Shown: positions 6,778 through 38,905 of the stretch, piece by piece
Layout: every line of letters starts with the position of its first letter
How positions within the stretch are numbered: position 1 is the first letter of the stretch
Assembly: GCA_965248265.1 (NCBI GenBank)
Contig: CBDFJF010000001.1
Span: 576,001 to 640,000 of the forward strand
Origin: Candidatus Latescibacterota bacterium
GTDB taxonomy: Bacteria; Latescibacterota; UBA2968; UBA8231
Direction of reading: 5' to 3'
Length of the DNA stretch: 64,000 nucleotides
The notes under the pieces: generated by a model
Told to the model about the DNA's origin: nothing
What the model saw: only the letters and a program-made list of their open reading frames with translations
Databases searched by the model: none
Made by a program: the position numbers and the translations under genes

Positions 6778-7599
6778 CTAGTGATCGGGATGAGCGGCCA
6801 TGCTGATGAACAGTGCCGAGAGCAGAGTAAAAATGAAGGCTTGGATGAAACCGATGAAAATCTCAAGCATGTAGATGGCTGCTGCGAAGGCGATGGAAAA
6901 CGGGGCCAGATAATAGCTCTTGAGCATTATGATCAGACCCAGAAAAACCAGTATCGCCACGTGTCCGGCGATCATGTTGGCGAACAGACGGATGGCCAGG
7001 GCGAACGGCTTGGACAACAGGCCCATGATTTCGATCGGAATCATGATCGGCAACAGCCAGGTAGGCATTCCAGACGGCACCAGGCTGCGACAGTAGCCGA
7101 CGAATCCGTTGTTGACGATGCCGCTGACCTGAGTGACCGTGAAGGTACACAGGGCCAGCGCCGCGGTAACGCTGATGTTGCCCGTTGCCGTGGCACTGTA
7201 GGGAAACAGGCCGATCAGATTGCAAAACAGGATGAAGAAGAAAACGGTGAGCAGGTACGGCATGTATTTGCGGCCGTCCTCGCCCATGATCGGGAGCACT
7301 ACCTCGTCACGGATGAAAAGGACCATCGCCTCGAACAGGTTGGCCAGCCCGAAGGGCACGGCTTTGGGCCTGCGGAAGGCTACGGTCAACAGCAAAATCA
7401 GCAGGCTGCTGGCCACCCACATCATCAGGACGTGTTTCGAGATGGATAAATCGATGCCGTAGATTGGAGCGAACTGCGGCAAGTTGATGTGCCCGTCGAC
7501 CCAGTTGTGGGCGTTGACGAAGGGCACGTCCAGCTGCTTGGAATCGAGGATGTGCCCGATGATATCTACTTGACCGTCTGACCCTGCGTCACCCGCCAT
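6778..7599 (-). CDS. atpB: ATP synthase Fo a subunit
   Basis: KPFALAIRLFANMIAGH and IQAFIFTLLS; FCB-like N-terminal extension (IIGHILDS). Confidence 0.97.
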   Translation of the reverse strand: MAGDAGSDGQVDIIGHILDSKQLDVPFVNAHNWVDGHINLPQFAPIYGIDLSISKHVLMMWVASSLLILLLTVAFRRPKAVPFGLANLFEAMVLFIRDEVVLPIMGEDGRKYMPYLLTVFFFILFCNLIGLFPYSATATGNISVTAALALCTFTVTQVSGIVNNGFVGYCRSLVPSGMPTWLLPIMIPIEIMGLLSKPFALAIRLFANMIAGHVAILVFLGLIIMLKSYYLAPFSIAFAAAIYMLEIFIGFIQAFIFTLLSALFISMAAHPDH

Positions 7600-7630
7600 T
7601 CAATCACTCAGCCAATATCGTCAGTGTTAT

Positions 7631-7659
7631 CTATCAGTTGATCTTGCTATCAGTTGATC
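7631..7659. repeat. Direct repeat CTATCAGTTGATC x2 in the atpI-atpB spacer
   Basis: Identical 13-mers at 7631-7643 and 7647-7659. Confidence 0.75.
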
Positions 7660-7697
7660 CGGTAGACGACTGATCGTCACCTACCAAACGTTCAAAA

Positions 7698-8033
7698 TTA
7701 TGACGCTTGATTGCTCTGGTCAACCCGAGCAGGATCGATCGGCTGTCGCCTCTCGCGCTCGTTGCGGCGCACGACCGCTACGATCTCGACGATCATAGCC
7801 AGGATGCAGGTCGTCCCCAGGCCGGCGACGAAATAGCCCGGATGGATTGGCGTCACCAGGAGCAGGATGGCGGAGGCGGCCGCCATCAGCACCAGCCGGA
7901 GCGCCATGCCTCCCAGAAACACCTTGACGAAAAGTTGCGGCCGGCTGTTCCAGGTCCACCGGATACTCAACCAAGCTATGGCCCCGTTGACGAGCGCCAG
8001 CCCGATACCACAGGCCAACCCTGCCCATATCAT
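7698..8033 (-). CDS. AtpI-like membrane protein
   Basis: Hydrophobic protein with FLGGMALRLVL between atpZ and atpB. Start set at ATG 8033 (ATGA overlap). Confidence 0.8.
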   Translation of the reverse strand: MIWAGLACGIGLALVNGAIAWLSIRWTWNSRPQLFVKVFLGGMALRLVLMAAASAILLLVTPIHPGYFVAGLGTTCILAMIVEIVAVVRRNERERRQPIDPARVDQSNQAS

Positions 8034-8320
8034 TCTGTTTCCTCTCCTTTGGCTTGAGGGTCCTGGTTCGTCGCAGGCCCATCGCCGTCCTCGCTGTCTG
8101 GACGGGTCAGCATCCGGTAAAGATGGTAGAAGGCCGCCGTCGCCCCAAAGAGCATGCCGGCGATCAACAGTAAGGGAGATGTAGATAGCTTGTCGTCCAG
8201 CCACCATCCTCCGATGGTCGCGATGATGATGGTAACGGCAAACTGCAATCCCGCTCCCAGCAACAGGCCGGCCTGGGCCATGCCTGCCTGTTTCTTTGTC
8301 CGCTTGTCATCAGCGGTCAT
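8030..8320 (-). CDS. AtpZ/AtpI family protein
   Basis: Two TM helices with the GWWLDDKLSTSP motif; first gene of the atp cluster. Confidence 0.88.
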   Translation of the reverse strand: MTADDKRTKKQAGMAQAGLLLGAGLQFAVTIIIATIGGWWLDDKLSTSPLLLIAGMLFGATAAFYHLYRMLTRPDSEDGDGPATNQDPQAKGEETE

Positions 8321-8339
8321 GGCTGCTTACCACTATTCC

Positions 8340-9752
8340 TCACCAACCGATCAAGCCGGCCTGGCGAGCGGCACTTACCAATGGTTCTGACCACACACCA
8401 CCTCCTACCGAAAACAAGAGCATCAATACCAGGGCGGCGGCGAGTGGGGGGTCGACATGGACGGCCACCGACTCGCCAGCACCGGGAGGCGATAGTACTC
8501 GGACGATCAACCGCGCATACACGTAAGCCATCAGCAGACTGTTGATCAATATGCCTAGGGCGAGCCCGCCAAAGCCGGCATCCAACACCGAACTCAATAC
8601 CCAGTAGCGGGCAGTGAATCCCATCGTCGGCGGCACCCCGACCAGCGCCAGTAGCAGGACCAGCAGCGTCCCTGCCAGCAGTGGGTGTCTACGTGCCAGG
8701 CCCAGACAGTCGTCGATCTCCAGCTCCGTTTCCCGCTGACGGCAAAGCGCCAGCAGCACGGCGCAGCAACCACATACCGCCATGCCGTAAAAGGACAGAT
8801 AGAACACAACCCCGCCACCACCGCGACTGCCCATCGCGCAGAGCCCGGCCAGGGCGTAGCCGATATGAGCGAGTGAGGCGTAGCCCAGCAGGCGCTTTAG
8901 CCGGCGCTGATTCATCGCCAGCAGATTGCCCACCGTCATCGTCAACACGGCAGCAACCCAGGTCAAGGCGACCGCATACTCCTCGACCAGGTCGAAGCCG
9001 ACGGCGCACAGGCGCATCGCCACGGCAACGGCCGAAGCCGTGCCAGCGGAGGCCAGCAGCGCCGATACCGGTGCGGGCGCGCCATGAAAAACGTCGGCAA
9101 ACCACATGTGTAAAGGGACGACGCCGATGCGGGCGCCGACAGCAACCGCGAGCAGGGCCATTCCCGCCAGCGTCAACCGGCTCACGGTGACGTCCGTACC
9201 GTGATACGCGGCGACGAGTTCCGCCAGGTCGGTCGTACCGGTCGCCCCGTACACGAGGACAAGCCCGAGAAGGAAGAACGCACTGGCGACGGCTCCCGTC
9301 ATCGCCAATCGGAGACCGGCCTCCACGGCGATCCGGCTCGACTTCCCGCAGATGATGAGAGCCTGTAGGGACAGGACAGCCAGCTCGAGACTGACAAACA
9401 GCAGCAACAGGTCATTTGCGCGCACCATCACCATCATCCCCAGCACCGAACACAACAGCAGAGGATAAAACGCCAAGCCCGGGGAATCTGTGTCTGCGCC
9501 GCGGTGGCGAGAGAGAGACATGAGGATGGTCAAGCAGGCAAAGCTCAGGATCAGGACGGTGCAGTAGGAGTAAAATTCGGCGGCGAAGCTCTGTCTGAGC
9601 GCAACGGCGAGAATGGCGAGACTACCGAAAAGACTGGTATAGCCCATGCTTGCCGTCACCCTGGAGCCCAGCGACGTAAAGAAGGCTTCGAGCAGGACCA
9701 CGGCGACGATCAGAGCTGCCAGCAGTAGCTCCGGAGTTGAGAAGAAATCCAT
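8340..9752 (-). CDS. nuoN: NADH-quinone oxidoreductase subunit N-like (divergent)
   Basis: NDLLLLFVSLEL, VPLHMWFADVFHGAPAP, KRLLGYASLAHIGY. Start at ATG 9752 (TAATG overlap). Confidence 0.9.
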   Translation of the reverse strand: MDFFSTPELLLAALIVAVVLLEAFFTSLGSRVTASMGYTSLFGSLAILAVALRQSFAAEFYSYCTVLILSFACLTILMSLSRHRGADTDSPGLAFYPLLLCSVLGMMVMVRANDLLLLFVSLELAVLSLQALIICGKSSRIAVEAGLRLAMTGAVASAFFLLGLVLVYGATGTTDLAELVAAYHGTDVTVSRLTLAGMALLAVAVGARIGVVPLHMWFADVFHGAPAPVSALLASAGTASAVAVAMRLCAVGFDLVEEYAVALTWVAAVLTMTVGNLLAMNQRRLKRLLGYASLAHIGYALAGLCAMGSRGGGGVVFYLSFYGMAVCGCCAVLLALCRQRETELEIDDCLGLARRHPLLAGTLLVLLLALVGVPPTMGFTARYWVLSSVLDAGFGGLALGILINSLLMAYVYARLIVRVLSPPGAGESVAVHVDPPLAAALVLMLLFSVGGGVWSEPLVSAARQAGLIGW

Positions 9753-11362
9753 TAAGGATTCTCCTCGATATTGACTGGATGCTGAGTGCTGTCCGTAGTC
9801 GCCGGTGCCAGCGGAGGCGCCGACTCGTCGTTTCCAACTCTGATGACGGAATACCCGGTCGTCGGCAGCCAACCGGTGATGTGGTCGACGGCCGGTGCCG
9901 TAACCTGCACTAGTGGCGCAGGGTGGAGGCCCAGAAACAGAACCAGTCCCAGGATGGCTACCGCCATCCCGGTGAGCGCGCCCCTGGAGCCGCCGGCTCC
10001 AGTCGAGTCGGCCCCAGTTGTGGCGGACAGCAGGGTGTAGGCAGCGACTGACAACCCCAGGAGCGTTGCTACAGTGTGGCCTGGAAACGCCGCGAAGCCG
10101 GCGACCATGCACAGGATAGCTCCGCTGAACGGGGCCGATGCTGGAAAGCCGAGGAAGGCGACGACAGCACTCCACCACAGCAGCGCTTGCCATCGCCCGA
10201 TCCGCTCGCCGCCCGCGGCCAGAGAAACTGAGAGGGCAAGCGCAACCAACAGCGCCCGCACGAGACCGTGACTGAGAGCATACAGGAAACTGCCCTGGAT
10301 ACCCTCACCCGTGAGCGTCCACAGGCCCAGCAAAATGACTCCGTTGAAGCCCAGGCACAGGTAAGCCAGCCGGCGACGCAAGGAAGAGCGCTGCCCGAGA
10401 GCAAGAGCCCCACCGTACAGAGCAACCCAGGCGGCCAGTGCACCTCCCCAGTGAGCACCGATCTGCTCGACGGGTTCGGGACACAGTGGCATGGCAAACC
10501 GCAGTATCACGTAAGTGGCTATCAGGGGCCAGCCGCCAACGACCACGACCGCGACCAGCGGATTTTTCGTGCGTAGCGCCAATAGATCCACCAACCAACC
10601 ATGAAACGGCGCGATCGGCAGCTGGATGACCAGGTACAATCCGAAGGCGGCGGCGATCCACATCTGCGCCTCAGCGGGCAGCGCAAGCGTCAGCAACTGC
10701 TCTGGATCGAGTTGGGGGCTGCCTGTCTTTTGCTGAGCCGTCGAGCGCACCGACAGGGCTGCAGCCAACAGCGCCAGTGTGGCCGCGTAGTTAAAGAGGA
10801 GAAACCTCAATGCGACCCGGCGGCGCTCACTGCTGCGCACGCCACCCCCTGCCTCGTCATCCTTGGCCATACAAAGAGCGAAAAACAGAGCGAAAACGGC
10901 GGCCTGAGAGAACAGCGTCAGCAGCAGGAGGTTGGCCGCGACGAAGACGCCCTGGAGCGATGCCATAGCCACCAGCAATCCCATGCTTGCCCCCCTACCG
11001 CCGACGGAATTTGCTGACATGGCGATGAGAAACAGGAGTGGGATGACAACCAGCGCGAAGACATTGAGATGGTCGATCCCCAGCTGCAGGTCGAGGCCCA
11101 GTGAAGGCGCCCATGGTACGCTGCCGGCGACCCCCACGGCCTGCGATCCTGCTGATCCGAACAATTCAACGGTTGAGTGGAACTGTTCCGGTAGATCCAG
11201 GAAGTTGCCAACAGCCAGTAACCCTAACGCCAATTCCAGAAAGGTCACGGCCAGCAGGACCAGACGGCGGCCCTGCCCCGACGCGGGTGGCAGGAGAGCG
11301 ACAACGGCTGCGCCGATCAGAGGCACGACCACGAAACTCGACAGGATCAGGGCGGGCATCAT
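9752..11362 (-). CDS. nuoM: NADH-quinone oxidoreductase subunit M-like (highly divergent)
   Basis: PWAPSLGLDLQLGID, PIAPFHGWL, RRRLAY and ALSHGL; lies between nuoL and nuoN. Start at ATG 11362. Confidence 0.85.
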   Translation of the reverse strand: MMPALILSSFVVVPLIGAAVVALLPPASGQGRRLVLLAVTFLELALGLLAVGNFLDLPEQFHSTVELFGSAGSQAVGVAGSVPWAPSLGLDLQLGIDHLNVFALVVIPLLFLIAMSANSVGGRGASMGLLVAMASLQGVFVAANLLLLTLFSQAAVFALFFALCMAKDDEAGGGVRSSERRRVALRFLLFNYAATLALLAAALSVRSTAQQKTGSPQLDPEQLLTLALPAEAQMWIAAAFGLYLVIQLPIAPFHGWLVDLLALRTKNPLVAVVVVGGWPLIATYVILRFAMPLCPEPVEQIGAHWGGALAAWVALYGGALALGQRSSLRRRLAYLCLGFNGVILLGLWTLTGEGIQGSFLYALSHGLVRALLVALALSVSLAAGGERIGRWQALLWWSAVVAFLGFPASAPFSGAILCMVAGFAAFPGHTVATLLGLSVAAYTLLSATTGADSTGAGGSRGALTGMAVAILGLVLFLGLHPAPLVQVTAPAVDHITGWLPTTGYSVIRVGNDESAPPLAPATTDSTQHPVNIEENP

Positions 11363-13197
11363 CGGCTCGTCAACCACACAACAGCCACAAGAGTGATGGC
11401 AGCGCTCAGCACGGCGGCCGTGACGGCCGAGGAAAAACGGCCGTCGTGCAGGGTTCCGATCAACCAACCGCAGACGCGAACGCCTGCGCCGATCCCGCGC
11501 AGGCACAGCAACTCGACGGCCACATCGACGAACGTCGATACCCGGTCCGCCAACCAACAGACGGACCGCGCAATGGCCGTGTAGAGATCGTCGAACAGCA
11601 ATCCATTTCCTAGCAGATGCCTCAGGAGGTGCGGCGGACGGCCGGTGACACCCCTGGGGCTCGGTCTCAGGCGCCCCACCAGGACCCACGCCCATCCACA
11701 TCCGGCGAGCGTGAGCACGACGCAGGCGATTCCGACCGTGGACTCCACCAGCACCGCCGAGGGCATCGCGCCGACGTCAGCGAAAGCCCGCGGGATTGCA
11801 GCCGCCAGACGGATCGGAGAAGCCTGGTGACTGATTAACATCGCAATGACAGCAAGACCGGACAGACAGGCCATGAAGGCGACAGGAACTGTGGTCGAGC
11901 CCTCGCGGATCACAGTACGGGGATTGACACCCGTGAAAATGCCGAACAGCAGGCGGAAAAGGTGGAGGGAGGTAAGCAGCACGACCAGGCTTCCCAGAAT
12001 CGCGAAGGGAGTGCTCTCTGCCGCAGCTGCCTCCAGGAACGACAGCTGCACCCAGAAACTCGCGAACGGGGGCAACACCAACACGATGGTGGCTACCAGA
12101 GTGAACCGGTACGCCGTCTTCAAGTGGACCCGCAGACCACCAAGTGTGGACAGCTCAAAGGCCGCCGAACTCGCGCGCTCGGCCAGGCCGGTGGTGAGCA
12201 GGAGTACACATTTGACACAGGTATGAATCGACAACTGCAGCAATGCCACGGCCGGCATTCCCATGGACGCGAGGGTCAGGGCGATCGCGCCCTGGCTTGA
12301 GGTGGAATAGGCCAGCGACCGGCGGGGGTCGCGAGCGGCCGCGGCACAAGCCGCCATCAGCGCGGCACCGGCCAATCCAATGCCCGACAAACCTTCCGGA
12401 GACATCAGCTGCCAGGATCGAACCAGCAGGTAGAGACCGAGCGGGACCGCGAAGACGACCTGGATGAAGGTGGCTGCCGGCGTCCCTAACGACGCGCTTC
12501 GCTCCAACCAGGGATGCAACGGCCACATGCCAGTCCGGGCAATACCAGCCACCGCAATCGACAGGCCGATGACGGCAGTTGTCGAACCCCCCAAGACCTC
12601 CACGAAGGCGACGGAACCCAGGTGCAAGAGCATGAACACGAGCGCGCTCAGGAGTCCCAGCGAGGCGAGGCCCTGGAAGACCAAAGTCCGCGCCGCGGCC
12701 GGACCGTCGCCGCGCAAACGGACCAGCAGCCAGGTCGACAACGCGACTCCCTCCCAACCGGCATACAGCATACCGTAATTGTTGGCGATCACCGCCAAGA
12801 GTGCACAGGACACTCCGAAGTGGACGACGGCGTCCTGGCGGCGCTGCTGATGGAGTTCCTCAGTCTCAAATGCCGATTTGCATACATGGACCGCCAGGTT
12901 GGTCGAGGCCACGACGAAGGCTGTGATCGCGGACATTGGATCGATGAGAAAACCGGCCGTTATGACGGTGTCCTGCCCCAGGACGATCCAGGTCATGACA
13001 TCCCAGTTTGCTGTCACCGCTGTACCGCAGCTCAAGACCAGAAGCACCAGCGCACACAGCCAGGTGAGGGCGGCAGTATTGATACCACGCATGCGCAACG
13101 CGCCTGTAGATCGCGCGCCCGCTGTGGCGACGGCTCCTGCCAGTGGCGTGAGCAGAAGACCGTATGCGGCTATTTTCGTTAGCAGAACCAACTGCAT
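11359..13197 (-). CDS. nuoL: NADH-quinone oxidoreductase subunit L-like (divergent)
   Basis: GFLIDPMS, GWEGV, PLHPWL, LAYSTSSQ, IHTCVK and a C-terminal FDDLY lateral-helix region. Confidence 0.88.
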   Translation of the reverse strand: MQLVLLTKIAAYGLLLTPLAGAVATAGARSTGALRMRGINTAALTWLCALVLLVLSCGTAVTANWDVMTWIVLGQDTVITAGFLIDPMSAITAFVVASTNLAVHVCKSAFETEELHQQRRQDAVVHFGVSCALLAVIANNYGMLYAGWEGVALSTWLLVRLRGDGPAAARTLVFQGLASLGLLSALVFMLLHLGSVAFVEVLGGSTTAVIGLSIAVAGIARTGMWPLHPWLERSASLGTPAATFIQVVFAVPLGLYLLVRSWQLMSPEGLSGIGLAGAALMAACAAAARDPRRSLAYSTSSQGAIALTLASMGMPAVALLQLSIHTCVKCVLLLTTGLAERASSAAFELSTLGGLRVHLKTAYRFTLVATIVLVLPPFASFWVQLSFLEAAAAESTPFAILGSLVVLLTSLHLFRLLFGIFTGVNPRTVIREGSTTVPVAFMACLSGLAVIAMLISHQASPIRLAAAIPRAFADVGAMPSAVLVESTVGIACVVLTLAGCGWAWVLVGRLRPSPRGVTGRPPHLLRHLLGNGLLFDDLYTAIARSVCWLADRVSTFVDVAVELLCLRGIGAGVRVCGWLIGTLHDGRFSSAVTAAVLSAAITLVAVVWLTSR

Positions 13198-13509
13198 TTA
13201 GCCCTCGAACTCCGGCGATCGCTTGTCGAGATCGGTGTCACCACCGCGACGGTGGCGCAGGCACAGCAATGACAGCAGGACGACGGCTTGCCCTACACCG
13301 GCGGCCAACGTGATCAGGGCCATCACCTGGCCGGAATCGTCAGCATGAAAGTGTGCGAAGGCTGCGAGGGTGACGACGGCTCCCAACCCCATCAGCTGAA
13401 ACCCCAGGATGACGGCCAGAACGTTGCGCCGCAGGACGATGCCCGTTAGCCCGAGCCCGAACAGGAGCAAACCAAAAAGCGTAGTCACCTGCAGGATCGC
13501 CGCGCTCAT
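13198..13509 (-). CDS. nuoK: NADH-quinone oxidoreductase subunit K-like
   Basis: LFGLGLTGIVLRRN and GQVM motifs; both conserved Glu appear as Gln. Confidence 0.9.
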   Translation of the reverse strand: MSAAILQVTTLFGLLLFGLGLTGIVLRRNVLAVILGFQLMGLGAVVTLAAFAHFHADDSGQVMALITLAAGVGQAVVLLSLLCLRHRRGGDTDLDKRSPEFEG

Positions 13510-14093
13510 GGACCCTCCCCGGTACTGGCAGGATCATCTACCCGATTGGATTCGACAATCGCCAGCGTGGTGGCGAAAAGGACGAAGCCGATGACGATGA
13601 ATGACACCAAGTGTCTCCTCACCAGTAGACCGGTGAGTGACTCGCTATCGGCAACCACGCCATCGGCGACGATGGCGGCAGTGGTCTCCCCTTGGACGGC
13701 GACCGTTGGAGCTATCCCTGGAGTCGCCGCAATGACACCGAGCGCGACTACCAGGATTGCGGCCGCGCACAAGATCAGCCTTCGCCTCTTGGAATCCGAG
13801 GCGGCTCGCGGACCTTGCCGCGAGTGTCCCACGAGCGGAGTGCCCGATTCTTCTTGATTGACAACCATGTGACCTACGAGATAGACGGCGGCGATGACAC
13901 CACCCTGCATCAGGACTAGCCCGATGGCAACCAGTGGCGCATTCGCGAAGATCCCCACGATGCCGGCTGCGGCCAGGACCACCACGCCGAGAGCGAGAGC
14001 AGACCGAGTCACCGATCGACTGGTGGCGACGACGACGGCGGCGGCCACGGCGAGTGCTGCCAGTAACACGTACAGGACCAGACCGGAGATCAC
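13506..14093 (-). CDS. nuoJ: NADH-quinone oxidoreductase subunit J-like
   Basis: Multi-TM protein between nuoH and nuoK. GTG start at 14093 overlaps the nuoH stop (GTGA). Confidence 0.8.
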   Translation of the reverse strand: MISGLVLYVLLAALAVAAAVVVATSRSVTRSALALGVVVLAAAGIVGIFANAPLVAIGLVLMQGGVIAAVYLVGHMVVNQEESGTPLVGHSRQGPRAASDSKRRRLILCAAAILVVALGVIAATPGIAPTVAVQGETTAAIVADGVVADSESLTGLLVRRHLVSFIVIGFVLFATTLAIVESNRVDDPASTGEGP

Positions 14094-15115
14094 GCGTTTG
14101 TCATCATTTTCAGGAGCCGCGAACCGACCGCTACCATCAGCAGATTGGCAAAAGCCAGCGGCAGCAGGTATTTCCAGCCGACGGTGGCTGCGCGCTCGAG
14201 TACCAGCGACGGCAGGCTCGAACGGACCCAGAGAAACAGCAGGACGACAGCGGCGGTTTTGATGACGGTTGCGCTGGCCTGCACATGCGGCACTTCCCCG
14301 TTGCCGACGAGTCCGGGAATGTGCCACCCCCCCAGGTACAGGGTGACGAGGAAGGCGCTGGCGGCTATCAGATGCACCCGCTCCGCCACCAGCATCAAGG
14401 CCAAGTGGCGGCCGCTGTAGAGGCTGCCGAGGCGGCCGCCTCTGGTCGGGTCTCGCTGGGTGAGTGGACGCCAGGGGATAATCTGCAGGAGGGCGGCGAA
14501 GCAGACGACGAAACCCAACGGTTGAACCATCAGGTTCCAGGCGAGGATGACGTGTCCGTCGATCGCTGTCTGGGCGGCGATGATCTGGTCAAAACGAGCT
14601 GTTCCGCCGGCCGTTATGACTCCGAAAACGGCGACCCCGAGCGCCAGGTAACAGCTCAGCTGGCGCGCCACCAGACGCAGTCCTCCGAAATCACGAAAGC
14701 CTCCTATTTGAGCGCGGGTTCCGGCGATCAGACCAACCTGGAGAGCGATGAAGCCCAGGGCCATGACGTAGACGACCCCCAGGCTGGTGTGCCCTCCCCA
14801 CGCCGCCAGCGCTGTCCAGAGCCCACCACCATCACTCTGGCAAAACGGAACCACGGCGAGGGCGGTGAACGAAATGGCCAACAACAGAGGGGCGGCCCAC
14901 TTGCCGCCAGCTCCAGCCGCGGCCCGTGGCGATCTCTTTGACGCCAGCTTGATCAGATCGGCTACGGGGCGCAATCCGAAACCCGCCCGCTGGCGCCTGC
15001 CCGGCGCGGTCCGGTACTCAGCGAGCATGATCGCCATGACTCCGATCGCCGTACATAACAGCAGCGCGCCGTTGGAGCCCAGCGCGTTGATGAGTGGAAG
15101 GTCCTGGAAGGCCAA
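14090..15115 (-). CDS. nuoH: NADH-quinone oxidoreductase subunit H-like (divergent)
   Basis: PVADLIKL, GGLR, YSG, LYLGGW, WVRSSLP, GWKYLLPL. The TTG start at 15115 is approximate. Confidence 0.87.
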   Translation of the reverse strand: MAFQDLPLINALGSNGALLLCTAIGVMAIMLAEYRTAPGRRQRAGFGLRPVADLIKLASKRSPRAAAGAGGKWAAPLLLAISFTALAVVPFCQSDGGGLWTALAAWGGHTSLGVVYVMALGFIALQVGLIAGTRAQIGGFRDFGGLRLVARQLSCYLALGVAVFGVITAGGTARFDQIIAAQTAIDGHVILAWNLMVQPLGFVVCFAALLQIIPWRPLTQRDPTRGGRLGSLYSGRHLALMLVAERVHLIAASAFLVTLYLGGWHIPGLVGNGEVPHVQASATVIKTAAVVLLFLWVRSSLPSLVLERAATVGWKYLLPLAFANLLMVAVGSRLLKMMTNA

Positions 15116-15116
15116 T

Positions 15117-16796
15117 TCAGTCGGTATCCGCCGGCCGCTGTCTCGACAGCCAGTCTCGTTTGTTGTGATCGTCAACGGCCAGAAAACCACGTCGTTGCAG
15201 AGCGGTGGACCATCCACCGCCGTAGGCCTGTGCGATACCTGCCGCACCGAGCCCCGCACCCGGGTCCCCCTGATTCTGATCGAGGACAGTCTCGGCTTCC
15301 GCTATGACGGAGTTCGGCGCCGCGAATCGAACCGCCACTCGTTTGAGAATCTCGATATCGTCCAGGCACCCGGGAGCGGGTCCAACGGCCTTTTGCAACC
15401 GCTGAAGGTGCCCGTCGGCGTTGGTCATGGTACCGGCTTTTTCTGGGAAACTGCATCCTGGCAGCACGACCCGCGCCAGGGCGGCCAGTTCGTCCTGCAG
15501 GATATCCAGGACGACCAGATTGTCGGCAACAGCACCCAGGGCGCTGAGCTCGATGTCGTCCGGCCGAACGCCCGGTCCCCCACCCACAACGAAGGCCGCA
15601 CCGATCAATCCCTCCTGCAGTGCTTCCACCATCTGATCCATCCCCAGCAAACTCTGGCCCAGCTCTGCCGCCACCCCTTTGATGCCATGCGAATTCGCCG
15701 CCTTGTCGCCTCGAATCGTGAATCCACTCGGGTAGATCGTGTCGCCTTCCGTAGCGAGGGACTGCCGCAAGGATATCAATTCGGTGTCCCAGCCTTGAGC
15801 AAGGCGAATCAACAGACGGGCTTCCTCGTTCGTCATCTGGCCGCCGAGTATGACTCCGATCTGCTGTCCCTGAGAGCGGCAGGCGGTAAAAGCGAGATGA
15901 ATGGCCTCGCACGCGTCCTCCCAAGATGCGACAACGTCTGCAACGCCATCAGCTGACTGGATCAGGGGATGCGTCAACCGCTCCGAACTGTGGACGTAGT
16001 GCCATCCGTGACGTCCATCATCGCACATCCAGTACTCGTTGACATCCATGTTCACGCGGGGCTTGAGTCTCTTCACCTGATCGCCGGCAACATCGATGCG
16101 GATGTTGCATCCGGAGGAACAGCCGGTGCAGATCGAGTCGACACCGCGCAATCTCCAGGCCGGCTGCAGCTGGAAACGCTTGTCGATCAGAGCACCGGCC
16201 GGACACAGATCCACGGTGTTGCCGGACAGCCGATTGTCCATCTTTGACCCGGGAAAGGTAGCGACTTCGAGGCGGTCACCTCGATCGAACATCGACAGCT
16301 CTTCCGTACCGGTGACCTCCGCGCAGAAACGGACGCAACGGGTACAATGGATGCATTTCCCCGGGTCTATGGCAACGTGATCTCCCAGATCCCGAATTTC
16401 ACTCGCGCCCTTTTCGGGAAGCACGTATGGACCGTCGCCGCCGTAGGCGAAGCTGAATTCCTGTAACTCGCACTCTCCCGAATTGTCGCACGATGGACAT
16501 TCCAATGGGTGCCGCACCAGCTGGAACTCAAGCGCTGTAGCTCGCGCCTGCCTTACGGCCTCCGATTCCGTGCGCACCACCATGCTGTCCTGTACCTGCG
16601 CATCGCACGCCGTCGTCAAACGCCAGCCGTCGTCGTCTCGCACCTCTATCGCACATAGCCGACACAGTGCCGGAGTAGACAGGGCCGGATGAAAACACAG
16701 ATGGGGGACGAAAATTTCAGCCTCGAGAGCGCCCATGAGCAGATTGGCCCCGTCCTCGATCTCCAGCGCTCTGCCGTCCCATGTTATTCGGGCCAT
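15117..16796 (-). CDS. nuoG: NADH-quinone oxidoreductase subunit G-like (short form)
   Basis: Motifs for N1b (LCFHP...CRLC...TAC), N5 (HPLECPSCDNSGEC), N4 (CIHCTRC...CP) and N7 (CTGCSSGC...C). Confidence 0.93.
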   Translation of the reverse strand: MARITWDGRALEIEDGANLLMGALEAEIFVPHLCFHPALSTPALCRLCAIEVRDDDGWRLTTACDAQVQDSMVVRTESEAVRQARATALEFQLVRHPLECPSCDNSGECELQEFSFAYGGDGPYVLPEKGASEIRDLGDHVAIDPGKCIHCTRCVRFCAEVTGTEELSMFDRGDRLEVATFPGSKMDNRLSGNTVDLCPAGALIDKRFQLQPAWRLRGVDSICTGCSSGCNIRIDVAGDQVKRLKPRVNMDVNEYWMCDDGRHGWHYVHSSERLTHPLIQSADGVADVVASWEDACEAIHLAFTACRSQGQQIGVILGGQMTNEEARLLIRLAQGWDTELISLRQSLATEGDTIYPSGFTIRGDKAANSHGIKGVAAELGQSLLGMDQMVEALQEGLIGAAFVVGGGPGVRPDDIELSALGAVADNLVVLDILQDELAALARVVLPGCSFPEKAGTMTNADGHLQRLQKAVGPAPGCLDDIEILKRVAVRFAAPNSVIAEAETVLDQNQGDPGAGLGAAGIAQAYGGGWSTALQRRGFLAVDDHNKRDWLSRQRPADTD

Positions 16797-16797
16797 G

Positions 16798-18156
16798 TTA
16801 GTAACGCACGCTTACGCTATCCGGCACCCTGAACCCGGGGTCTTTCAGCTCCTGCATTGGGCAGGCTCCTGCCGTAGCGTGCGCCTCGAATTCGGCTCTG
16901 AACGAATGGAAGAAATCCTGCACGGTCCAAGCGAAGGCGCTACCGAATCCACACAGCGCCGTGGTCTGCTCAGGCCGGAGCCGGGGGGCGATCTGACGCG
17001 CCACGGATTCGATCAGCTTCACCTCGTCGGCGTCACCCCCCTTACCCTCCTCCAGTCGTTGCAGCAACTGGAGGATCCAACTCGAGCCCTCCCTGCACGG
17101 CGCGCACTGCCCGCACGATTCCACCGCATAGAAGCGCATCATCTGGATCGCCGTGTCCACCATGCAGGTGGTATCATCCAGGACGATGACCGCGCCGTTG
17201 CCGAAGGCTCCATCGATCGGTCCTGCGCCGGGTATCGCCCATTGTTGGGGGTCGAGATCGACATCGAGCTGCTGTGGCTGCAGAACCGTCGACAGTGTGC
17301 CACCGACGATGACCGCCTTGAGCGAGCGACCATCGGGTACACCACCGGCGTAGTCGTCTACCAACTCCCTCAGCGTCGCCTCGCCCAAAGCCAGTTCGTA
17401 CAAACCTGGACGACGCACGTGCCCGCTGACACAAAACACGCACGTACCTGGATAGGCATGCGTGCCGATGGTCCTGAACTCGACCGCACCGGCTGACAGA
17501 ATGTCAGGTAGATAGGCCAGGGTGCCGACGTTGTGGACAACGGCCGGCTCGCCAAAGAGGGTGCGTGGGGACGACGCCGGTGCCGGCTCAGGTCGTCCCC
17601 CTTCGAGCCCCTGTAGCAAGGCCGATTCCTCGGCGGCAATATGGGCACCACCCCCTGGATGCACGTAGACATCCAGGTCGAAACCACTGCCGGCAATATC
17701 ACGCCCCAGCCAGTTGGCTTTGTAGGCCTCGTCTATTGCCTGGTTGATGACGGTGGTTGGACGGGCAAGTTCACCTCTCACGCATAGATAGGCGACCCGT
17801 GCGCCAAGAGCTCGGGCGGCGATGAGTATACCTTCGAGAAGGCGATGAGGTACGCGCTCCATGAGCTTGCGGTCACGAAACAGACCCGGATCGGCATCGT
17901 AGGCATTGACACACAGGTAGGGCGGCGGTGCCGACGTCATCGCCGGCTGCGCCGACCGCCGCCACTTATCCGCGACCGGCTCCCAACCGCCGCCACGACC
18001 GCGCAGACCACTGGCGGCGACTTCCTCCAGCAGCTGCTGTTGGGTCATGGCCAACGCCTTGGCCGCTCCCCGATAGCCGCCGTGGGTGAGGTAGGCCTGG
18101 ATGCCCTCGATGTCGGGGATCTCGATATTCTTGAGGAGCAGTCTGTGCTCAGCCAT
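16798..18156 (-). CDS. nuoF: NADH-quinone oxidoreductase subunit F-like (remodelled nucleotide site)
   Basis: SGLRGRGG, PHRLLEG, SGHVRRPGLYE and the N3 motif ESCGQCAPCREG...LCGFG. Confidence 0.93.
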   Translation of the reverse strand: MAEHRLLLKNIEIPDIEGIQAYLTHGGYRGAAKALAMTQQQLLEEVAASGLRGRGGGWEPVADKWRRSAQPAMTSAPPPYLCVNAYDADPGLFRDRKLMERVPHRLLEGILIAARALGARVAYLCVRGELARPTTVINQAIDEAYKANWLGRDIAGSGFDLDVYVHPGGGAHIAAEESALLQGLEGGRPEPAPASSPRTLFGEPAVVHNVGTLAYLPDILSAGAVEFRTIGTHAYPGTCVFCVSGHVRRPGLYELALGEATLRELVDDYAGGVPDGRSLKAVIVGGTLSTVLQPQQLDVDLDPQQWAIPGAGPIDGAFGNGAVIVLDDTTCMVDTAIQMMRFYAVESCGQCAPCREGSSWILQLLQRLEEGKGGDADEVKLIESVARQIAPRLRPEQTTALCGFGSAFAWTVQDFFHSFRAEFEAHATAGACPMQELKDPGFRVPDSVSVRY

Positions 18157-18160
18157 GGCC

Positions 18161-18667
18161 TCAGTCCTCGATACGCTCTACGGTACGCTCTAGTAATTGA
18201 GTCAGTTTCTCGAGACTCAGGCTTTCATGCAGCTCGTCGTCTACGAGCATCACCGGAGCCGTGCTGCAGGATGCCAGACACGGAACACGTTCGAGGGTGA
18301 AATGGCCGTCCAGGGCCGTGTCCCCCGGCTCAATGCCGAGCGCGACACGCAGTTGGCCCAGAACCGTTTCAGCACCCATCAAGCGGCAGGAGAGGCCATC
18401 GCACACCCGCAGCCGGCTTCTACCAGCCGGCTTGTCAGTCCTCAGCAGGGGATAGAAACTGGCCACGCCGGCAGCTCGAACTGGAGGTATTGCCAACAGG
18501 TCGGCCACGTGGCCGATCACAGACGGTGAGCACCAGCCCCACTCTCGCTGTGCCAGCAGCAGGACCGGAAGAAGCGCACCGCCAGCCTCGGGATAGCGCT
18601 CCCGGATGCGCTGGTACTCGGCCTCCGTGTCCGGACCGAAAGCCAATTTGTCGATGGTCTGCTCCAT
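18161..18667 (-). CDS. nuoE: NADH-quinone oxidoreductase subunit E-like
   Basis: GVASFY and the 2Fe-2S motif CDGLSC...CLASC. Start at ATG 18667 (TGATG overlap). Confidence 0.93.
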   Translation of the reverse strand: MEQTIDKLAFGPDTEAEYQRIRERYPEAGGALLPVLLLAQREWGWCSPSVIGHVADLLAIPPVRAAGVASFYPLLRTDKPAGRSRLRVCDGLSCRLMGAETVLGQLRVALGIEPGDTALDGHFTLERVPCLASCSTAPVMLVDDELHESLSLEKLTQLLERTVERIED

Positions 18668-20319
18668 CACCGGTCCATCTCCGCAGGCACCACATTGAGA
18701 CTGCACAGAGCCTGGCGCGCTTGTGCCATCGGCAGATCGGCGACCAGGCCTCCGGCGACCTGAAAGTTCAACAACGAAGGCGAGCGCAGGTGGAGCCGGT
18801 AGGGCCGGTCGGTGCCGTCTGCGCACAAGAACACGCCGAGCTCGCCATTCGGACTCTCGGTCGCTTGGTAACACTGGGCGCCCGCCGGCAGGCGAAGGCC
18901 ATGCCCCTCCGTCCACAACTGCATGTGGCGGATCATTACCTCCACGCGTTCGCGCACTTGCTCGGACGTGCCCGGAAAAACGCGGGCGTCCTCGGTGCGC
19001 CAGGCACCGGTCGGCATCGACCGCAAAGCCCGTTCGATGAGGCCGGTACTCTCCACCATCTCCTCCATGCGCACCCGGCAGCGATCCAGCGCGTCGCCGT
19101 TCGAGCCAACGGGCACCTCGAAATCCAGCTCGCCATACGCCAGGTACGGCGTCGTCTTGCGCAGATCCGACTCCGTGCCGCAGGCACGCTGGACCGGACC
19201 ACTCAAACCCCATTCGGCGGCTTCATGGGCGCTCAGCGCTGCCACTCCGTCGACCAGGTCACGCCACAGGCGATTGCCCATGAGCTGCTTGTGCAACCGT
19301 GCCACCGCAACTCGTATCGACCGCGACAAGGCCAGCGCGCAGTTCATGAAATCATCCGGAAAATCGGCTGCCTGTCCCCCGATAGCCAGTAATCCGGTAC
19401 CGGTACCCACACCTCTCAACCGACCCATCGTCTCCAGTACTGCAGCACGCAGCTGCATGGCTTGTCGCCAAACTCTGTCGGCGCCGGCCGTCTCGGTTTG
19501 GATCGACAGCCAAGCCAGGTGTCCCGCGAGGCGGGAAAGCTCGGCGATGACGACACGCTGAAAGTTGCCTCTCGGTGGCACCTCGATTCCCAGCATCGCC
19601 TCGACCGCCAGTGCGAGGGTCAAGCTGGCGGCGTGAGGGGACTGGTCGTTCAGGCGTTCGCACACAACCATGTTCTGTATACAAGTCAACGACTCGGAGA
19701 GCTTCTCGATGCCACTGTGGGCAAATCCAGGCACCGGAGCAGCACGCACCACCCGGCCGGCCACCACCTCGAGGCGCATGCGCAGTGTCGGTATCGGCGC
19801 GACCAGAGCCGCGGTGTCCGGGCCAGTTGGCACAGGATTACCGGTTTCGCCCTCACCGAGCAAGGGATAGCGCTTGCGCAGCGGGTGAACGGAGGAGGGG
19901 GAGTGCAGGATCAGGGCTCGGGTCGTGGATCTGCCGGTAAAGCGGACCCCGAACATCTCCGCCACCTCACGCTCCTGCCAGTCTGCGCCCGGAAACAGAT
20001 CGGTGACGCTGGCCAGCGTGGTTTCTTCTGGATCGAAATCAGCACTCAATTGCAAACACGCAAAGGGTGTCTGGACTGACCGCAACTGGTAGACTATCCG
20101 CAGAGGCGCCGCCTCACCGGCGAGAGCGGACAGATCGACTGCAGTCATATCTGCGAGGGTGTAGCTTCCGTCCGTCCTCAGCGAGGTGAGCACCTCGTGC
20201 ACGGCATCCGCTTCCAGTACCAGCAATGTGCGTCCAGCAACTTCACGGATCTCGGCCGTCGGAAAGTTGACATGCAAGGTGGACAGCACGGTGTCGGCCT
20301 CGGCGAGTGTTTCAGCCAT
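18667..20319 (-). CDS. nuoCD: Fused NuoC/NuoD-like protein (quinone site degenerate)
   Basis: NuoC part WQEREVAEMFG...HPLRK. NuoD part GFAHSGIEK, GLSGPVQRA, ESPNGELG, RSPS and C-terminal EMDR. Start at ATG 20319. Confidence 0.9.
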   Translation of the reverse strand: MAETLAEADTVLSTLHVNFPTAEIREVAGRTLLVLEADAVHEVLTSLRTDGSYTLADMTAVDLSALAGEAAPLRIVYQLRSVQTPFACLQLSADFDPEETTLASVTDLFPGADWQEREVAEMFGVRFTGRSTTRALILHSPSSVHPLRKRYPLLGEGETGNPVPTGPDTAALVAPIPTLRMRLEVVAGRVVRAAPVPGFAHSGIEKLSESLTCIQNMVVCERLNDQSPHAASLTLALAVEAMLGIEVPPRGNFQRVVIAELSRLAGHLAWLSIQTETAGADRVWRQAMQLRAAVLETMGRLRGVGTGTGLLAIGGQAADFPDDFMNCALALSRSIRVAVARLHKQLMGNRLWRDLVDGVAALSAHEAAEWGLSGPVQRACGTESDLRKTTPYLAYGELDFEVPVGSNGDALDRCRVRMEEMVESTGLIERALRSMPTGAWRTEDARVFPGTSEQVRERVEVMIRHMQLWTEGHGLRLPAGAQCYQATESPNGELGVFLCADGTDRPYRLHLRSPSLLNFQVAGGLVADLPMAQARQALCSLNVVPAEMDR

Positions 20320-20713
20320 CGGAATCCGTGACGGGCGAGCGCTCTTCCCAGTCGAAGGCCCGTCGACGGGCAGCGTACACGAAGGCGCAGAGCAGGACGA
20401 TGATGAAAACGGCAACGACACCGAGCACGGCCGCATCACCATCCAGCAACTGATTGAACCCGAGAGCCCATGGCAACAGCAGGACGAGCCCTGCTTGAAA
20501 AACCGCTGCGATGAGCGCGATTCGGTAGAAGGGCAGGATTTGAGCCGGTGTGGACTGCGTTTGAGAGTCCCGCGCGGACGCCGTGTCATCGGCTCTATCG
20601 CGGCTGAGCAAGCGTGCCCCGAACAAGAAAGCCGCCGCAAACAGAAGGATTGCGACGGCTGAGATCACGGCAGCTGGAATTTCGATTGCGACCTCGTAGG
20701 CGGGAAGAGCCAC
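20312..20713 (-). CDS. nuoA: NADH-quinone oxidoreductase subunit A-like
   Basis: Three TM helices, FYRIAL...LLPWA and a C-terminal RRAFDW; first gene of the nuo cluster. Confidence 0.82.
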   Translation of the reverse strand: MALPAYEVAIEIPAAVISAVAILLFAAAFLFGARLLSRDRADDTASARDSQTQSTPAQILPFYRIALIAAVFQAGLVLLLPWALGFNQLLDGDAAVLGVVAVFIIVLLCAFVYAARRRAFDWEERSPVTDSDG

Positions 20714-20789
20714 TGGTGCCGGGTCAACCGTCTCGCCGACACTCGGTCACGACTGTGTCAGGCTGTAATGTGGGGAACGGCCATGGAAC

Positions 20790-21038
20790 TCATTGGGCGG
20801 CGCCCACAGCCGCCGGCACGGCCTCAGGCGTGAATACCGCGTCCTTGGCGGCGTCCTCCGAGGCGCAGGAGTCGCCGGGAGACGCGCCGCAGTCGCACAT
20901 CGGCATGCCCAACTCGTCACGCATGTTTCCCAGACCACCGCAGGTGCCCTTCAAGGGTCTGTCACGAAAAATCACGCCCACAGCCATGCCGGCCATGACG
21001 ATGCCGATGATGATGAAGGCTGGAATGAGGAGTTCCAT
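20790..21038 (-). CDS. nqrM: Na+-NQR maturation protein NqrM (DUF539)
   Basis: TM helix, then GMAVGVIF...PLKGTCGGL and further Cys; lies downstream of nqrF. Confidence 0.88.
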   Translation of the reverse strand: MELLIPAFIIIGIVMAGMAVGVIFRDRPLKGTCGGLGNMRDELGMPMCDCGASPGDSCASEDAAKDAVFTPEAVPAAVGAAQ

Positions 21039-21060
21039 CGACCCGCTCCCTGCTATTACC

Positions 21061-22299
21061 CTAACCGAAGTCGTCGAAGCGGATCATCTCTTCTTCCACT
21101 CCGAGCTCGTCCAGCATGTTCATCACTGCTTGCAGCATCATCGGTGGACCGCACAGATAGTACTCGATGTCTTCCGGAGCCGCGTGGGAGCTCAGATAGT
21201 GGTCGAGGACGACCTGGTGAATGAAACCCTGGTACCCGGTCCAGTTGTCTTCTGGCAGAGGCTCCGACATGGCCACATGCCACGAGAAGTTCGGGAACTC
21301 CTCGGCGATAGCCTCGAAGTGGTCCTCGTAGAACAATTCCTTGGAGGATCGAGCCCCGTACCAATACGACACCTTGCGACCGGTCCTCAAGGTGTGGAAC
21401 AGGTGAAAAATGTGCGACCGCAACGGTGCCATGCCAGCGCCGCCACCGATGTAGACCATCTCGCGCTCGGTTTCCTGGATGAAGAACTCCCCGTAGGGAC
21501 CGGAAATGGTAGCCTTGTCTCCAGCCTTCAGATTGAACACGAAGGAAGACACGATGCCGGGGTTGACCTTCATCCAGCCGCCGATGCTCGGATCGAATGG
21601 CGGCGTGGCGATACGGATGTTGAGCATGACGATGTTGCCCTCGGCCGGGTGATTCGCCATCGAGTAGGCACGAAAAACCGTATCGGCGTTCACCGTTCGC
21701 AGATCCCACACCTTGAAACGGTCCCAGTCGCCGTGAAAACGCTCGTCGACTTCGAAATCCCTGAAGGAGCACTGGAAGGACGGTACTTCTATTTGGATGA
21801 AGCCGCCGGATTCGAAATTCAGGTTCTCGCCTTCTGGTAATTTGAGGACGAGTTCCTTGATAAAGGTTGCGACGTTCTTATTGGAGATGACCTCGCATTC
21901 CCAGCGTTTGACCGAGAACACCTCGGGCGGCACTTCGATCTTCAAGCTCTCCTTGACGGCGACCTGACATGAGAGCCGATCCCCTTCGCGGGCTTCACGC
22001 TTGGTGATCTGTTCCAGCTCCGTGGCCAGAATCTCACCGCCCCCCTCGTGTATCTTCACGACACACTGGCCACAGGTACCGCCCCCACCGCATGCCGATG
22101 AAACGAAAAGCTGGTTATCTGCCAGCACGTTGAGCAGCTTGCCGCCCGCTGGCGTGGTCAGGGTGCGTTCATCGTTGATGACGATCTCGACGTCGCCGCT
22201 GGCAACCAGCTTGGAACGGGCTGCCAGGATGACGCCCACCAGCGCCAGCACGACCATCGTGAACATGCCGACACCGGCGGTTATTTCCACGGCCATCAT
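21061..22299 (-). CDS. nqrF: Na+-translocating NADH:quinone reductase subunit F
   Basis: [42 protein letters not shown] and a C-terminal DDFG. Confidence 0.98.
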
Positions 22300-29256: not shown

Positions 29257-29293
29257 CGGTTCAGCATCCAGGCACAGTAGCGGTACGTGATTC

Positions 29294-29322
29294 TTGACCC
29301 GTGCAAAGCGGGGATCTATTAT
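29294..29322 (+). promoter_or_regulatory. Sigma70-type promoter upstream of the AgcS symporter
   Basis: TTGACC, 17-nt spacer, TATTAT. Confidence 0.6.
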
Positions 29323-29419
29323 TGGCCAACGCCGCAAAACGAGCCTGCCTGTGCTGCAGGCCGGCGTGCCCACGACCATCCCTTTTTGTGCTAATCCTGT
29401 CCAGTAATTTTCCACAAGG

Positions 29420-37251: not shown

Positions 37252-37264
37252 TGGCATCGTCTCT

Positions 37265-38902: not shown

Positions 38903-38905
38903 GGG

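Follow-up and report, generated by a model that had tools for sequence, protein, structure and literature searches.

Does an operon carrying the genes of respiratory complex I necessarily encode a dehydrogenase of reduced nicotinamide adenine dinucleotide (NADH)? This question is raised by a stretch of 64,000 nucleotides from Candidatus Latescibacterota bacterium (assembly GCA_965248265.1, contig CBDFJF010000001.1, positions 576,001 to 640,000; hereafter, the window), in which eleven nuo genes, marked here with a prime (nuoA', nuoCD' and so on), lie between nqrABCDEF, coding for a Na+-NQR, and the genes of an F-type ATP synthase. A first-pass annotation, restricted to NuoEFG, had pointed to a changed pocket for NADH and flavin mononucleotide (FMN) in NuoF'; this change was confirmed, while the loss of the quinone site and of the proton-pumping residues had escaped it. 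Judged from its sequence, the enzyme is a complete complex I, degenerate by every canonical catalytic criterion and with all its iron-sulphur (Fe-S) ligands kept; in the family-level lineage to which the window belongs, every subunit has lost residues that are invariant in canonical enzymes. We consider it probable that this complex I, vestigial or repurposed, has ceased to oxidize NADH; the Na+-NQR encoded next door has probably taken over that job.

Loss of Conserved Residues across the Complex

The canonical sequences were taken from loci found by searching genome contigs with NuoF, after dropping the open reading frames (ORFs) that covered less than 70% of the query. The resulting sets hold 17–77 sequences per subunit (26–77 for NuoF, D, H, K, L, M, N, and A), and a column was considered invariant when at least 95% identical in the canonical set. 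Most of the loci retrieved in this way were canonical, the only members of the clade among them being L014, L015, and L038. The comparison also included seven operons from sister lineages (L125–L131, belonging to families f2, f3, f4, and f9), which are ordinary canonical members of the same class. The number of invariant residues retained by each subunit is reported in Table 1.

Table 1. Canonical-invariant residues retained in the window and in the sister operons
Subunit	Window	Sister operons (L125–L131)
NuoF	56/80	77–78/80
NuoD	44/58	56–58/58
NuoG	53/59	56–58/59
NuoH	28/53	52–53/53
NuoK	5/12	11–12/12
NuoL	35/85	83–84/85 in six of seven; 72/85 in L130
NuoM	23/46	45–46/46
NuoN	31/44	43/44 in L126, L129, L131; 30–34/44 in L125, L130, L127 (L128 left out)
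NuoA	6/13	
NuoE	7/7	

The Escherichia coli K-12 proteins were added to the alignments for residue numbering, and 28 key residues were followed; except for H224 and Y273 of NuoCD, these are positions singled out in the mutagenesis literature on E. coli. Each of the 28 corresponds to the majority residue of the canonical set and 26 are conserved in all or all but one of the sequences, the less conserved ones being NuoH E220 (53/56) and NuoM K234 (38/43). The window retains only 5 of the 28 (in NuoCD, H, J, K, L, M, and N) and 5 of the 26 proton-path residues (in NuoH, J, K, L, M, and N). In NuoH', E157 is replaced by Y, E216 by Q, E220 by T, and E228 by L, and D213 aligns to a gap; both conserved glutamates of NuoK' have become Q (E36 and E72), as has Y59 of NuoJ'. 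Concerning the antiporter-like subunits, NuoL' shows D178 to S, K229 to R, H254 to Q, K399 to Q, and D400 to L, with E144, D303, and K342 kept; NuoM' shows E144 to Q, K234 to Q, H322 to F, and E407 to A, with K265 aligned to a gap and H348 kept; lastly, NuoN' shows K217 to R, K247 to T, and K395 to R, with E133 kept.

At the quinone site of NuoCD', the positions of E. coli H224 and Y273, described as quinone-site residues in PMC8357420, hold A and D, respectively. The Tyr-to-Asp change was also seen against solved chains, and the quinone-site His and Tyr of NuoD are both present in 55 of the 56 canonical sequences and in all seven sister operons. The role of the Lys/Glu chain and of Tyr87/His38 has been described, and mutation of such residues is reported to impair the enzyme (PMC5938582). 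The sister operons keep all 28 key residues except NuoL E144 (in L130) and NuoN K247 (in L125, L130, and L127), and the second complex I of the same genome, an 11-subunit enzyme, keeps them except NuoM K234 and NuoL D400. Furthermore, an NCBIfam scan of the window subunits other than NuoA', J', and K' placed NuoE, G, D, H, L, M, and N below the curated cut-offs (e.g., 102 against 305 for NuoH and 165 against 556 for NuoL), and the same holds for NuoI', encoded elsewhere.

The NADH and FMN Pocket of NuoF'

The altered motifs listed in the first-pass annotation (GRGGGWEPVA, NAYDADPG, GAHIAAEES as part of GGGAHIAAEES, and HNVGT) are all present when NuoF' is compared with its relatives and with solved NuoF chains, and the reported absence of the RxKPPFP segment corresponds to a three-residue deletion accompanied by substitutions. 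Of the 120 best database relatives listed, 77 were classed as canonical; these 77 proteins are near-invariant for GGAGF, NADE(S/G)EPG, GAGAY, (K/R)PPFP, and NNVET, and the changes in nuoF' are therefore far beyond normal variation. In place of the flavin-site motifs GGAGF, NADESEPG, GAGAY-CGEE, and NNVET, the window protein has GGGWE, NAYDADPG, GGAHIAAEE, and HNVGT, with most of the flavin-site invariants lost. The flavin-contact residues K, N, and EE had been said to remain, and they do (K64, N84, and E176/E177 of NuoF'), together with D95.

Thirteen NADH contacts are given for a solved NuoF in PMC9299107: F71, K76, F79, E95, E97, D103, Y180, E185, K202, Y205, P206, V207, and G67. Their counterparts were placed by counting along the alignment to chain 9fii_B/6hl2_B, and the residue types agree with that list. 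All five adenine contacts are changed in NuoF' (F71 to E, F79 to R, Y205 to A, P206 to S, and V207 to S); moreover, K202 is deleted, E95 and E97 have become D, and Y180 has become H, leaving K76, E185, D103, and G67 unchanged. With nine of the thirteen contacts changed, a loss of canonical NADH binding is well supported.

The domain architecture is the expected one (Complex1_51K, SLBB, and NADH_4Fe-4S, all above the gathering scores). The protein falls below the NCBIfam equivalog cut-offs (378.7 against 558.65 for TIGR01959, 319.3 against 389 for NF010120, and 270.2 against 749 for NF008436), and the NuoF of sister operon L125 passes NF010120 (464 against 389). NuoF' also has 17 clade-specific conserved positions and a C-terminal tail, VP(D/E)SV(S/N)(V/I)R(F/Y) (window 16798–16830), which is conserved among the degenerate NuoF' proteins and absent from the canonical and sister NuoF sequences.

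We then considered whether the pocket had been re-tuned for another donor. A set of 38 sequences with non-canonical pockets was compared, consisting of the window protein, its 33 top-ranked matches, and four proteins picked by motif. Out of 126 canonical-invariant columns, 63 are retained in these relatives, 60 are variable, and 3 have switched to a new conserved residue; one of these three, G to W, is shared with the functional sister group. With 60 columns variable and only 3 switched, this looks like drift rather than retuning. A pocket adapted to a different donor is thus not what the relatives show, the former pocket residues being variable and no new motif having settled.

Association with Na+-NQR and Loss of the Operon

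In the lineage of the window, which is at the level of a family (f1), the degenerate operon stands between nqrABCDEF and the atp genes. The nqr-nuo' synteny is common to L124, L132, L133, L159, and L163, and in all six degenerate operons examined nqr lies directly upstream, with NqrA adjacent. On the basis of the invariant-residue scores, L124, L132, and L133 are eroded comparably to the window operon, and L159 and L163 are more eroded (NuoF 44/80 and 42/80, NuoD 43/58 and 35/58, NuoN 21/44); NuoH, J, K, and L of L159 gave no Pfam match. In a quick NuoF tree (its midpoint root, which lies among the long branches of the degenerate group, is not meaningful), the degenerate sequences lie on one side of a well-supported branch.

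NqrA was found in 67 of the 75 other genomes of f1. It is absent from the groups in which the seven sister operons occur, namely f2 (0/3), f3 (0/22), f9 (0/2), and genus g30 (0/2), and more generally from genera g28–g30. Within f1, genus g15 possesses a different, fully canonical 14-gene operon, with nuoB and nuoI in place (NuoF 80/80, NuoH 53/53); NqrA occurs in one of its five genomes, and G151 and G153, which lack NqrA, carry the canonical operon.

In two genomes of the genus to which L132 and L133 belong (G128, locus L160, and G144, locus L161), nqrF is followed by the atpI-like gene and atpB within about 400–500 bases, an arrangement that looks like a precise excision of about 12 kb. This adjacency, together with the presence of NuoF' in only 3 of the 31 genomes of this genus, g12 (G116, G120, and G131), indicates that the operon is dispensable. 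Marine relatives with strains harboring nqr and lacking nuo are reported in PMC11651109, which fits the same replacement pattern.

As a separate observation, the NuoD (PF00346) match at G098:C1:70224–71029 is split over two adjoining frames; either a frameshift in nuoCD' or a fault of the assembly may be the cause.

The Unlinked nuoB' and nuoI' Genes and the Second Complex I

There is no space for nuoB between nuoA' and nuoCD', nor for nuoI between nuoH' and nuoJ'. The first-pass inference that the Fe-S wire ends at N5 does not hold, because nuoI' and nuoB' are present elsewhere in the genome, on the other contig, with intact cluster cysteines (Table 2). This genome (G000, 7.3 Mb in two contigs) has two NuoB and two NuoI homologues, and with the eleven window genes, nuoB', and nuoI', all 14 core subunits of complex I are encoded. 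The other nuoB/nuoI pair belongs to a second, canonical operon, nuoABCDHIJKLMN, which lacks nuoEFG and keeps nearly all the invariant residues.

Four lines of evidence tie nuoB' and nuoI' to the window operon. NuoB' is eroded in the same lineage-specific manner as the operon, keeping 22 of 31 canonical-invariant residues, against 31/31 in ten sister NuoBs and 30/31 in the other NuoB of the genome; it passes only the subfamily model NF005012 (135 against 116). In G099 (a single contig) and G131, the sole NuoD homologue lies inside the degenerate operon and the sole NuoB homologue elsewhere, which supports the textbook pairing of NuoB with NuoD. Furthermore, the three g12 genomes with NuoF' all have NuoB and NuoI of this type; among the other 28, a NuoB match was found in one (G127, 58% complete) and a weak NuoI-like match in one (G121).

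The fourth line is that the rny-nuoI' linkage is common to families f1, f2, and f9, including fully canonical sister lineages (L149–L151 and L154); therefore, an unlinked nuoI is the normal state of the clade and predates the degeneration. In some sister operons (L127 and L130), nuoB is still found between nuoA and nuoCD. The gene order dnaJ-mrp-nuoB'-prmA-rsmE also occurs in G099, G098, and G101. The eukaryotic NUBPL/Ind1 is an assembly factor for the Fe-S clusters of complex I, so the pairing of mrp/NUBPL with nuoB' may be functional.

Two further observations concern complex I genes outside the operon. The genome encodes an FdsB-like NuoE-NuoF fusion of 567 residues, adjoining a formate-dehydrogenase-like alpha subunit split into ORFs of 384 and 536 residues; the split may stem from a selenocysteine TGA, from a frameshift, or from the way in which the ORFs were picked. 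In other phyla (Acidobacteriota and Leptospira; loci L016, L018, L019, L022, L024, L028, L029, and L084), otherwise canonical nuo operons contain no nuoG or nuoI by ORF assignment, and unlinked complex I genes may thus be commoner than usually assumed.

Fe-S Ligands, Selection, and Composition

Ligand columns were defined as positions with Cys or His in at least 85% of the canonical sequences; their attribution to clusters N1a, N3, N1b, N5, N4, and N7 (and N6a, N6b, and N2) follows the usual assignment for the enzyme. As the first-pass annotation had stated, all the ligands are present in NuoE', F', and G': the four 2Fe-2S cysteines in NuoE', four Cys in NuoF', and 16 ligand positions in NuoG'. 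Taking NuoB' and NuoI' into account, the positions for N1a, N3, N1b, N4, N5, N6a, N6b, and N2 are all there, and the four N3 cysteines of NuoF, invariant in alignment A2, occur both in the window protein and in those of five other degenerate operons. The sole lost ligand is a Cys changed to Arg in the NuoG' of L124 (G099), in the cluster CxxCxxC...CP, presumably N4.

The strength of selection was compared through the nonsynonymous (pN) and synonymous (pS) differences between L132 and L133; the proteins P0001–P0007, which are 76–97% identical, lie outside this comparison. The pN of the nuo' genes ranges from 0.13 to 0.24 and their pS from 0.63 to 0.72, with low pN values for F (0.13) and E (0.15) and higher ones for H (0.21), L (0.24), and M (0.22); pN in the flanking nqr and atp genes is 0.03–0.13. 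The pN of the membrane-arm nuo' genes is about twice that in sister pairs. The peripheral arm is slower than the membrane arm, and this order is reversed in the sister operons.

Most nuo' genes show GC3 > GC1 > GC2, with GC1 matching or marginally exceeding GC3 in nuoA', E', and J'. The Gly+Ala+Arg+Pro share of the nuo' proteins is 0.32–0.38, against 0.24–0.32 in the 11-subunit paralogues of the same genome, and that of Phe+Tyr+Asn+Lys+Ile is 0.09–0.14 against 0.19–0.25, with Lys down to 0.5–2%. The same shift was found with respect to the sister operons, the former share being higher and the latter halved. The composition has drifted in the direction of the GC bias of the genome, toward GC-rich codons, which is a simple explanation for the many Lys-to-Arg changes.

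Several data weigh against the view that the enzyme was replaced by Na+-NQR and left to decay. The NuoE, F, and G ligands are kept in 143 of 144 cases across six degenerate operons from five genera, NuoB' retains 4/4 cluster cysteines, and NuoI' retains 8/8; this near-perfect conservation argues for a selected function of the cofactor chain, although off-pathway clusters are retained just as well and the retention of ligands may thus simply reflect a folding requirement. The operon has been maintained through about 50% amino acid divergence, with eleven intact and tightly coupled frames, and a useless 12-kb operon should have been deleted everywhere. The pN of NuoE' and NuoF' (0.13–0.15) is no higher than that of the sister operons (0.12–0.14); pS is saturated (0.56–0.93 in every pair), so that all the pN/pS comparisons are rough. 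The count obtained from the 38 NuoF sequences is partly circular because four of its members were chosen by motif. Finally, since the degenerate operons form one group in the quick tree, the association with NQR is essentially one evolutionary event, plus the contrast offered by g15, and within that genus G150 has both NqrA and the canonical operon.

Organization of the nqr-nuo'-atp Region

The features of the region and those found elsewhere in the genome are listed in Table 2. The reading frames of all eleven nuo' genes are intact, and neighboring genes abut or have a start codon overlapping the preceding stop, as in the case of the nuoE' start on the nuoCD' stop. In the relatives, the genes recognised in L124, L132, and L133 are all single open frames, as are NuoCD, E, F, G, and N in L159 and L163, at about 50% divergence. 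Scanning positions 7400–21400 for signals yielded 1 promoter-like sequence (2.4 expected) and 12 terminator-like ones (9.0 expected). No candidate for a partner gene added to the operon was seen among the window genes. The other NuoH of the genome matches PF00146 with 384 bits, against 121 for nuoH'. The homologue of the atpI-like gene in locus L159 matches PF09527. The pyruvate dehydrogenase, TonB-dependent receptor, and symporter genes of the window are unremarkable surroundings.

Table 2. Location of the genes of the window and of related genes elsewhere in genome G000 (positions refer to the window unless a contig is given)
Feature	Position	Strand	Match or context
nqrABCDEF (Na+-NQR)	26958–21061	minus	NQRA_N/NQRA_2nd, NQR2_RnfD_RnfE, FMN_bind, Rnf-Nqr x2, Fer2+FAD_binding_6+NAD_binding_1; directly upstream of the nuo genes
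nuoA' (divergent)	20713–20312	minus	PF00507, 37.8 bits
nuoCD' (fusion)	20319–18667	minus	PF00329 + PF00346
nuoE'	18667–18161	minus	PF01257, 139.5 bits
nuoF'	18156–16798	minus	PF01512, 101 bits; SLBB; PF10589, 84 bits
nuoG' (559 residues)	16796–15117	minus	Fer2_4, NADH-G_4Fe-4S_3, Fer4_Nqo3, Molybdop_Fe4S4
nuoH' (start uncertain)	~15094–14090	minus	PF00146, 121 bits
nuoJ' (start uncertain)	~14093–13506	minus	PF00499, 34.7 bits
nuoK'	13509–13198	minus	PF00420
nuoL' (degenerate)	13197–11359	minus	PF00361, 76 bits
nuoM' (degenerate)	11362–9752	minus	PF00361, 52 bits
nuoN' (degenerate)	9752–8340	minus	PF00361, 183 bits
F-type ATP synthase: atpI-like, atpB, E, F, H, A, G, D	8207–1452	minus	Pfam; directly downstream of nuo'
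Pyruvate dehydrogenase complex E1, E2, E3	34573–40333	plus	
TonB-dependent receptor and sodium:alanine symporter	27367–30964		
nuoB'	G000:C2:3819245–3819670		start codon overlapping the stop of the gene for an iron-transfer P-loop ATPase of the mrp/NUBPL type; prmA after
dnaJ-mrp-nuoB'-prmA-rsmE	G000:C2:3818214–3819670 (locus L134 470–1929)		
nuoI'	G000:C2:3326499–3326930 (locus L146 1501–1935)		start on the rny (RNase Y) stop; dxr after
nuoABCDHIJKLMN	G000:C1:~252000–262000 (locus L005 8974–18630)		canonical, without nuoEFG
NuoE-NuoF fusion and split formate-dehydrogenase-like alpha subunit	G000:C2, locus L007 6056–10585	minus	FdsB-like

Comparison with Known Systems

The closest known system is the canonical complex I with a fused NuoCD (13 genes; E. 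coli, Aquifex, and Thermus), with which the window shares the 14 core subunits, the domain architectures, the gene order, the NuoCD fusion, and the positions of the Fe-S ligands, including those of N7. It differs from it in that nuoB and nuoI are unlinked, the scanned subunits lie under the NCBIfam cut-offs, and the NADH contacts, the flavin-site invariants, the quinone His/Tyr, the glutamates of NuoH and NuoK, and most of the Lys/Glu/His residues of NuoL, M, and N are replaced. The 11-subunit relatives without NuoEFG (cyanobacterial NDH-1, Campylobacter, and Fpo) use other donors and do not receive electrons from NADH by way of NuoF (PMC4453560, PMC3144371, and PMC11238625). Such enzymes did away with the N-module or exchanged it for something else, while their quinone site and proton channels were retained; the window complex still has its N-module, clusters included, and is without the quinone site and the pumping residues.

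HydB, HoxF, FdsB, and NfnB, the next-best solved relatives, share a fold family with NuoF' and keep the FMN/NAD(H) site; unlike them, NuoF' is encoded within a nuo operon and clusters with NuoF sequences. Retention of an Fe-S site that plays no part in the main electron path has a precedent in cluster N7 of NuoG, an off-path cluster (PMC8357420) present in some complex I enzymes; here, the same reasoning would extend to the whole chain. Full-text searches of the literature, with supplements and most subscription journals outside their scope, retrieved no account of an operon for complex I showing such losses.

Possible Fates of the Complex

In principle, different scenarios can account for these data. 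The complex might still work as an NADH:quinone oxidoreductase, with unusual residues performing the same chemistry. All 14 subunits are encoded with intact Pfam architectures, the flavin-site residues K64, N84, E176/E177, and D95 of NuoF' remain, and L124 keeps the NuoD Tyr as well as a His at the first of two conserved His positions, with E. coli H224 aligned to Thr there; nevertheless, we hold this scenario to be very improbable, given the loss of K202 and of all five adenine contacts in NuoF', of the His and Tyr at the quinone site, of the two NuoK glutamates, and of five NuoH acidic residues, and given also that mutation of such classes of residues is reported to impair the enzyme (PMC5938582) and that all the scanned subunits are below the curated cut-offs. 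At the opposite extreme, the genes might represent a silent pseudo-operon, without product or function and not yet deleted, in agreement with the loss of catalytic residues throughout, the drift in composition, the frequent deletions, and the split NuoD match of G098. This is also improbable, if somewhat less so: the eleven window frames are intact and those of the relatives single and open despite the divergence, pN is far lower than pS, nearly all the Fe-S ligands are retained, and the unlinked nuoB' and nuoI' are kept with the operon and absent from nearly all the g12 genomes without it. A further candidate was NuoEFG' as an input module in trans for the 11-subunit complex, whose canonical operon in the same genome has no NuoEFG of its own. 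This idea, which we consider barely credible, was rejected, since G099 and G131 have the degenerate operon but a single NuoD and a single NuoB, hence no second complex, NuoEFG' belongs to a full operon of its own, in which start and stop codons are coupled, and its NADH pocket is degenerate anyway.

A less easily dismissed alternative is that of a repurposed electron-transfer machine, in which the electrons carried along the chain from N3 to N2 would be supplied not by NADH but, for instance, by a ferredoxin, a flavodoxin, or an NQR subunit docked on NuoE'F'. Their acceptor would be something other than quinone bound in the canonical way, and the membrane arm would act only as an anchor; we regard this alternative as rather unlikely. 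It fits the Fe-S ligands kept in six operons, apart from one Cys of L124, and in NuoB' and NuoI', the slower change of the peripheral-arm genes between L132 and L133, the 17 clade-specific positions and the conserved tail of NuoF', the presence of D, E, and E at the quinone Tyr position in three of four operons, and the fixed gene order nqr-nuo'-atp. On the other hand, the former pocket is variable and without a newly conserved motif, a cysteine of the presumed N4 cluster is lost in L124, no candidate partner gene has joined the operon, and relaxation accounts better than a new essential role does for the compositional drift and for the operon having been cleanly lost on repeated occasions. 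Nor does ligand retention by itself demonstrate electron flux or decide between this alternative and the reading favored below, because off-pathway clusters are equally conserved. As for the first-pass proposal of a different donor or acceptor, its sequence basis stands and a retuned pocket does not, a protein donor docking on the module being the version that survives as a rival, at low probability.

The reading that we favor, a vestigial or repurposed complex I that no longer oxidizes NADH, would imply the following course of events. The arrival of Na+-NQR next to an ordinary complex I with unlinked nuoB and nuoI would have made that complex I superfluous; decay of its NADH site, quinone site, and proton path would have followed, so that the enzyme would no longer oxidize NADH, reduce quinone, or pump protons, these tasks being performed by Na+-NQR instead. 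Many descendants would have deleted the operon; where it was kept, it would still be made as an assembled Fe-S protein complex under relaxed but real constraint, with a residual non-canonical role, either structural or in minor electron transfer. A bolder possibility, of low probability, is that the product would be a new kind of membrane-anchored electron conduit or scaffold, devoid of NADH, quinone, and proton-pumping chemistry, with all nine Fe-S clusters under purifying selection and tied genetically, and perhaps physically, to Na+-NQR and ATP synthase; the emptied flavin pocket of NuoF and its tail would be the docking site for a protein donor.

Implications

Among the complex I variants on record, some have the catalytic core in full and the others have shed the NADH module. 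In the present case, the genes for the entire enzyme are intact, its NADH site, quinone site, and proton path have decayed, and the Fe-S chain has been spared. If the operon is a relic, it would offer a rare graded series of a 14-subunit machine dismantled after its functional replacement by Na+-NQR, starting with the canonical sister operons, continuing with L124, L132/L133, the window, and then L159/L163, and ending with clean deletion. If it is not a relic, it would represent an unknown use of the complex I scaffold. A practical consequence is that metabolic reconstructions from genomes would score a complex I in these organisms when the genes probably supply no NADH dehydrogenase activity.

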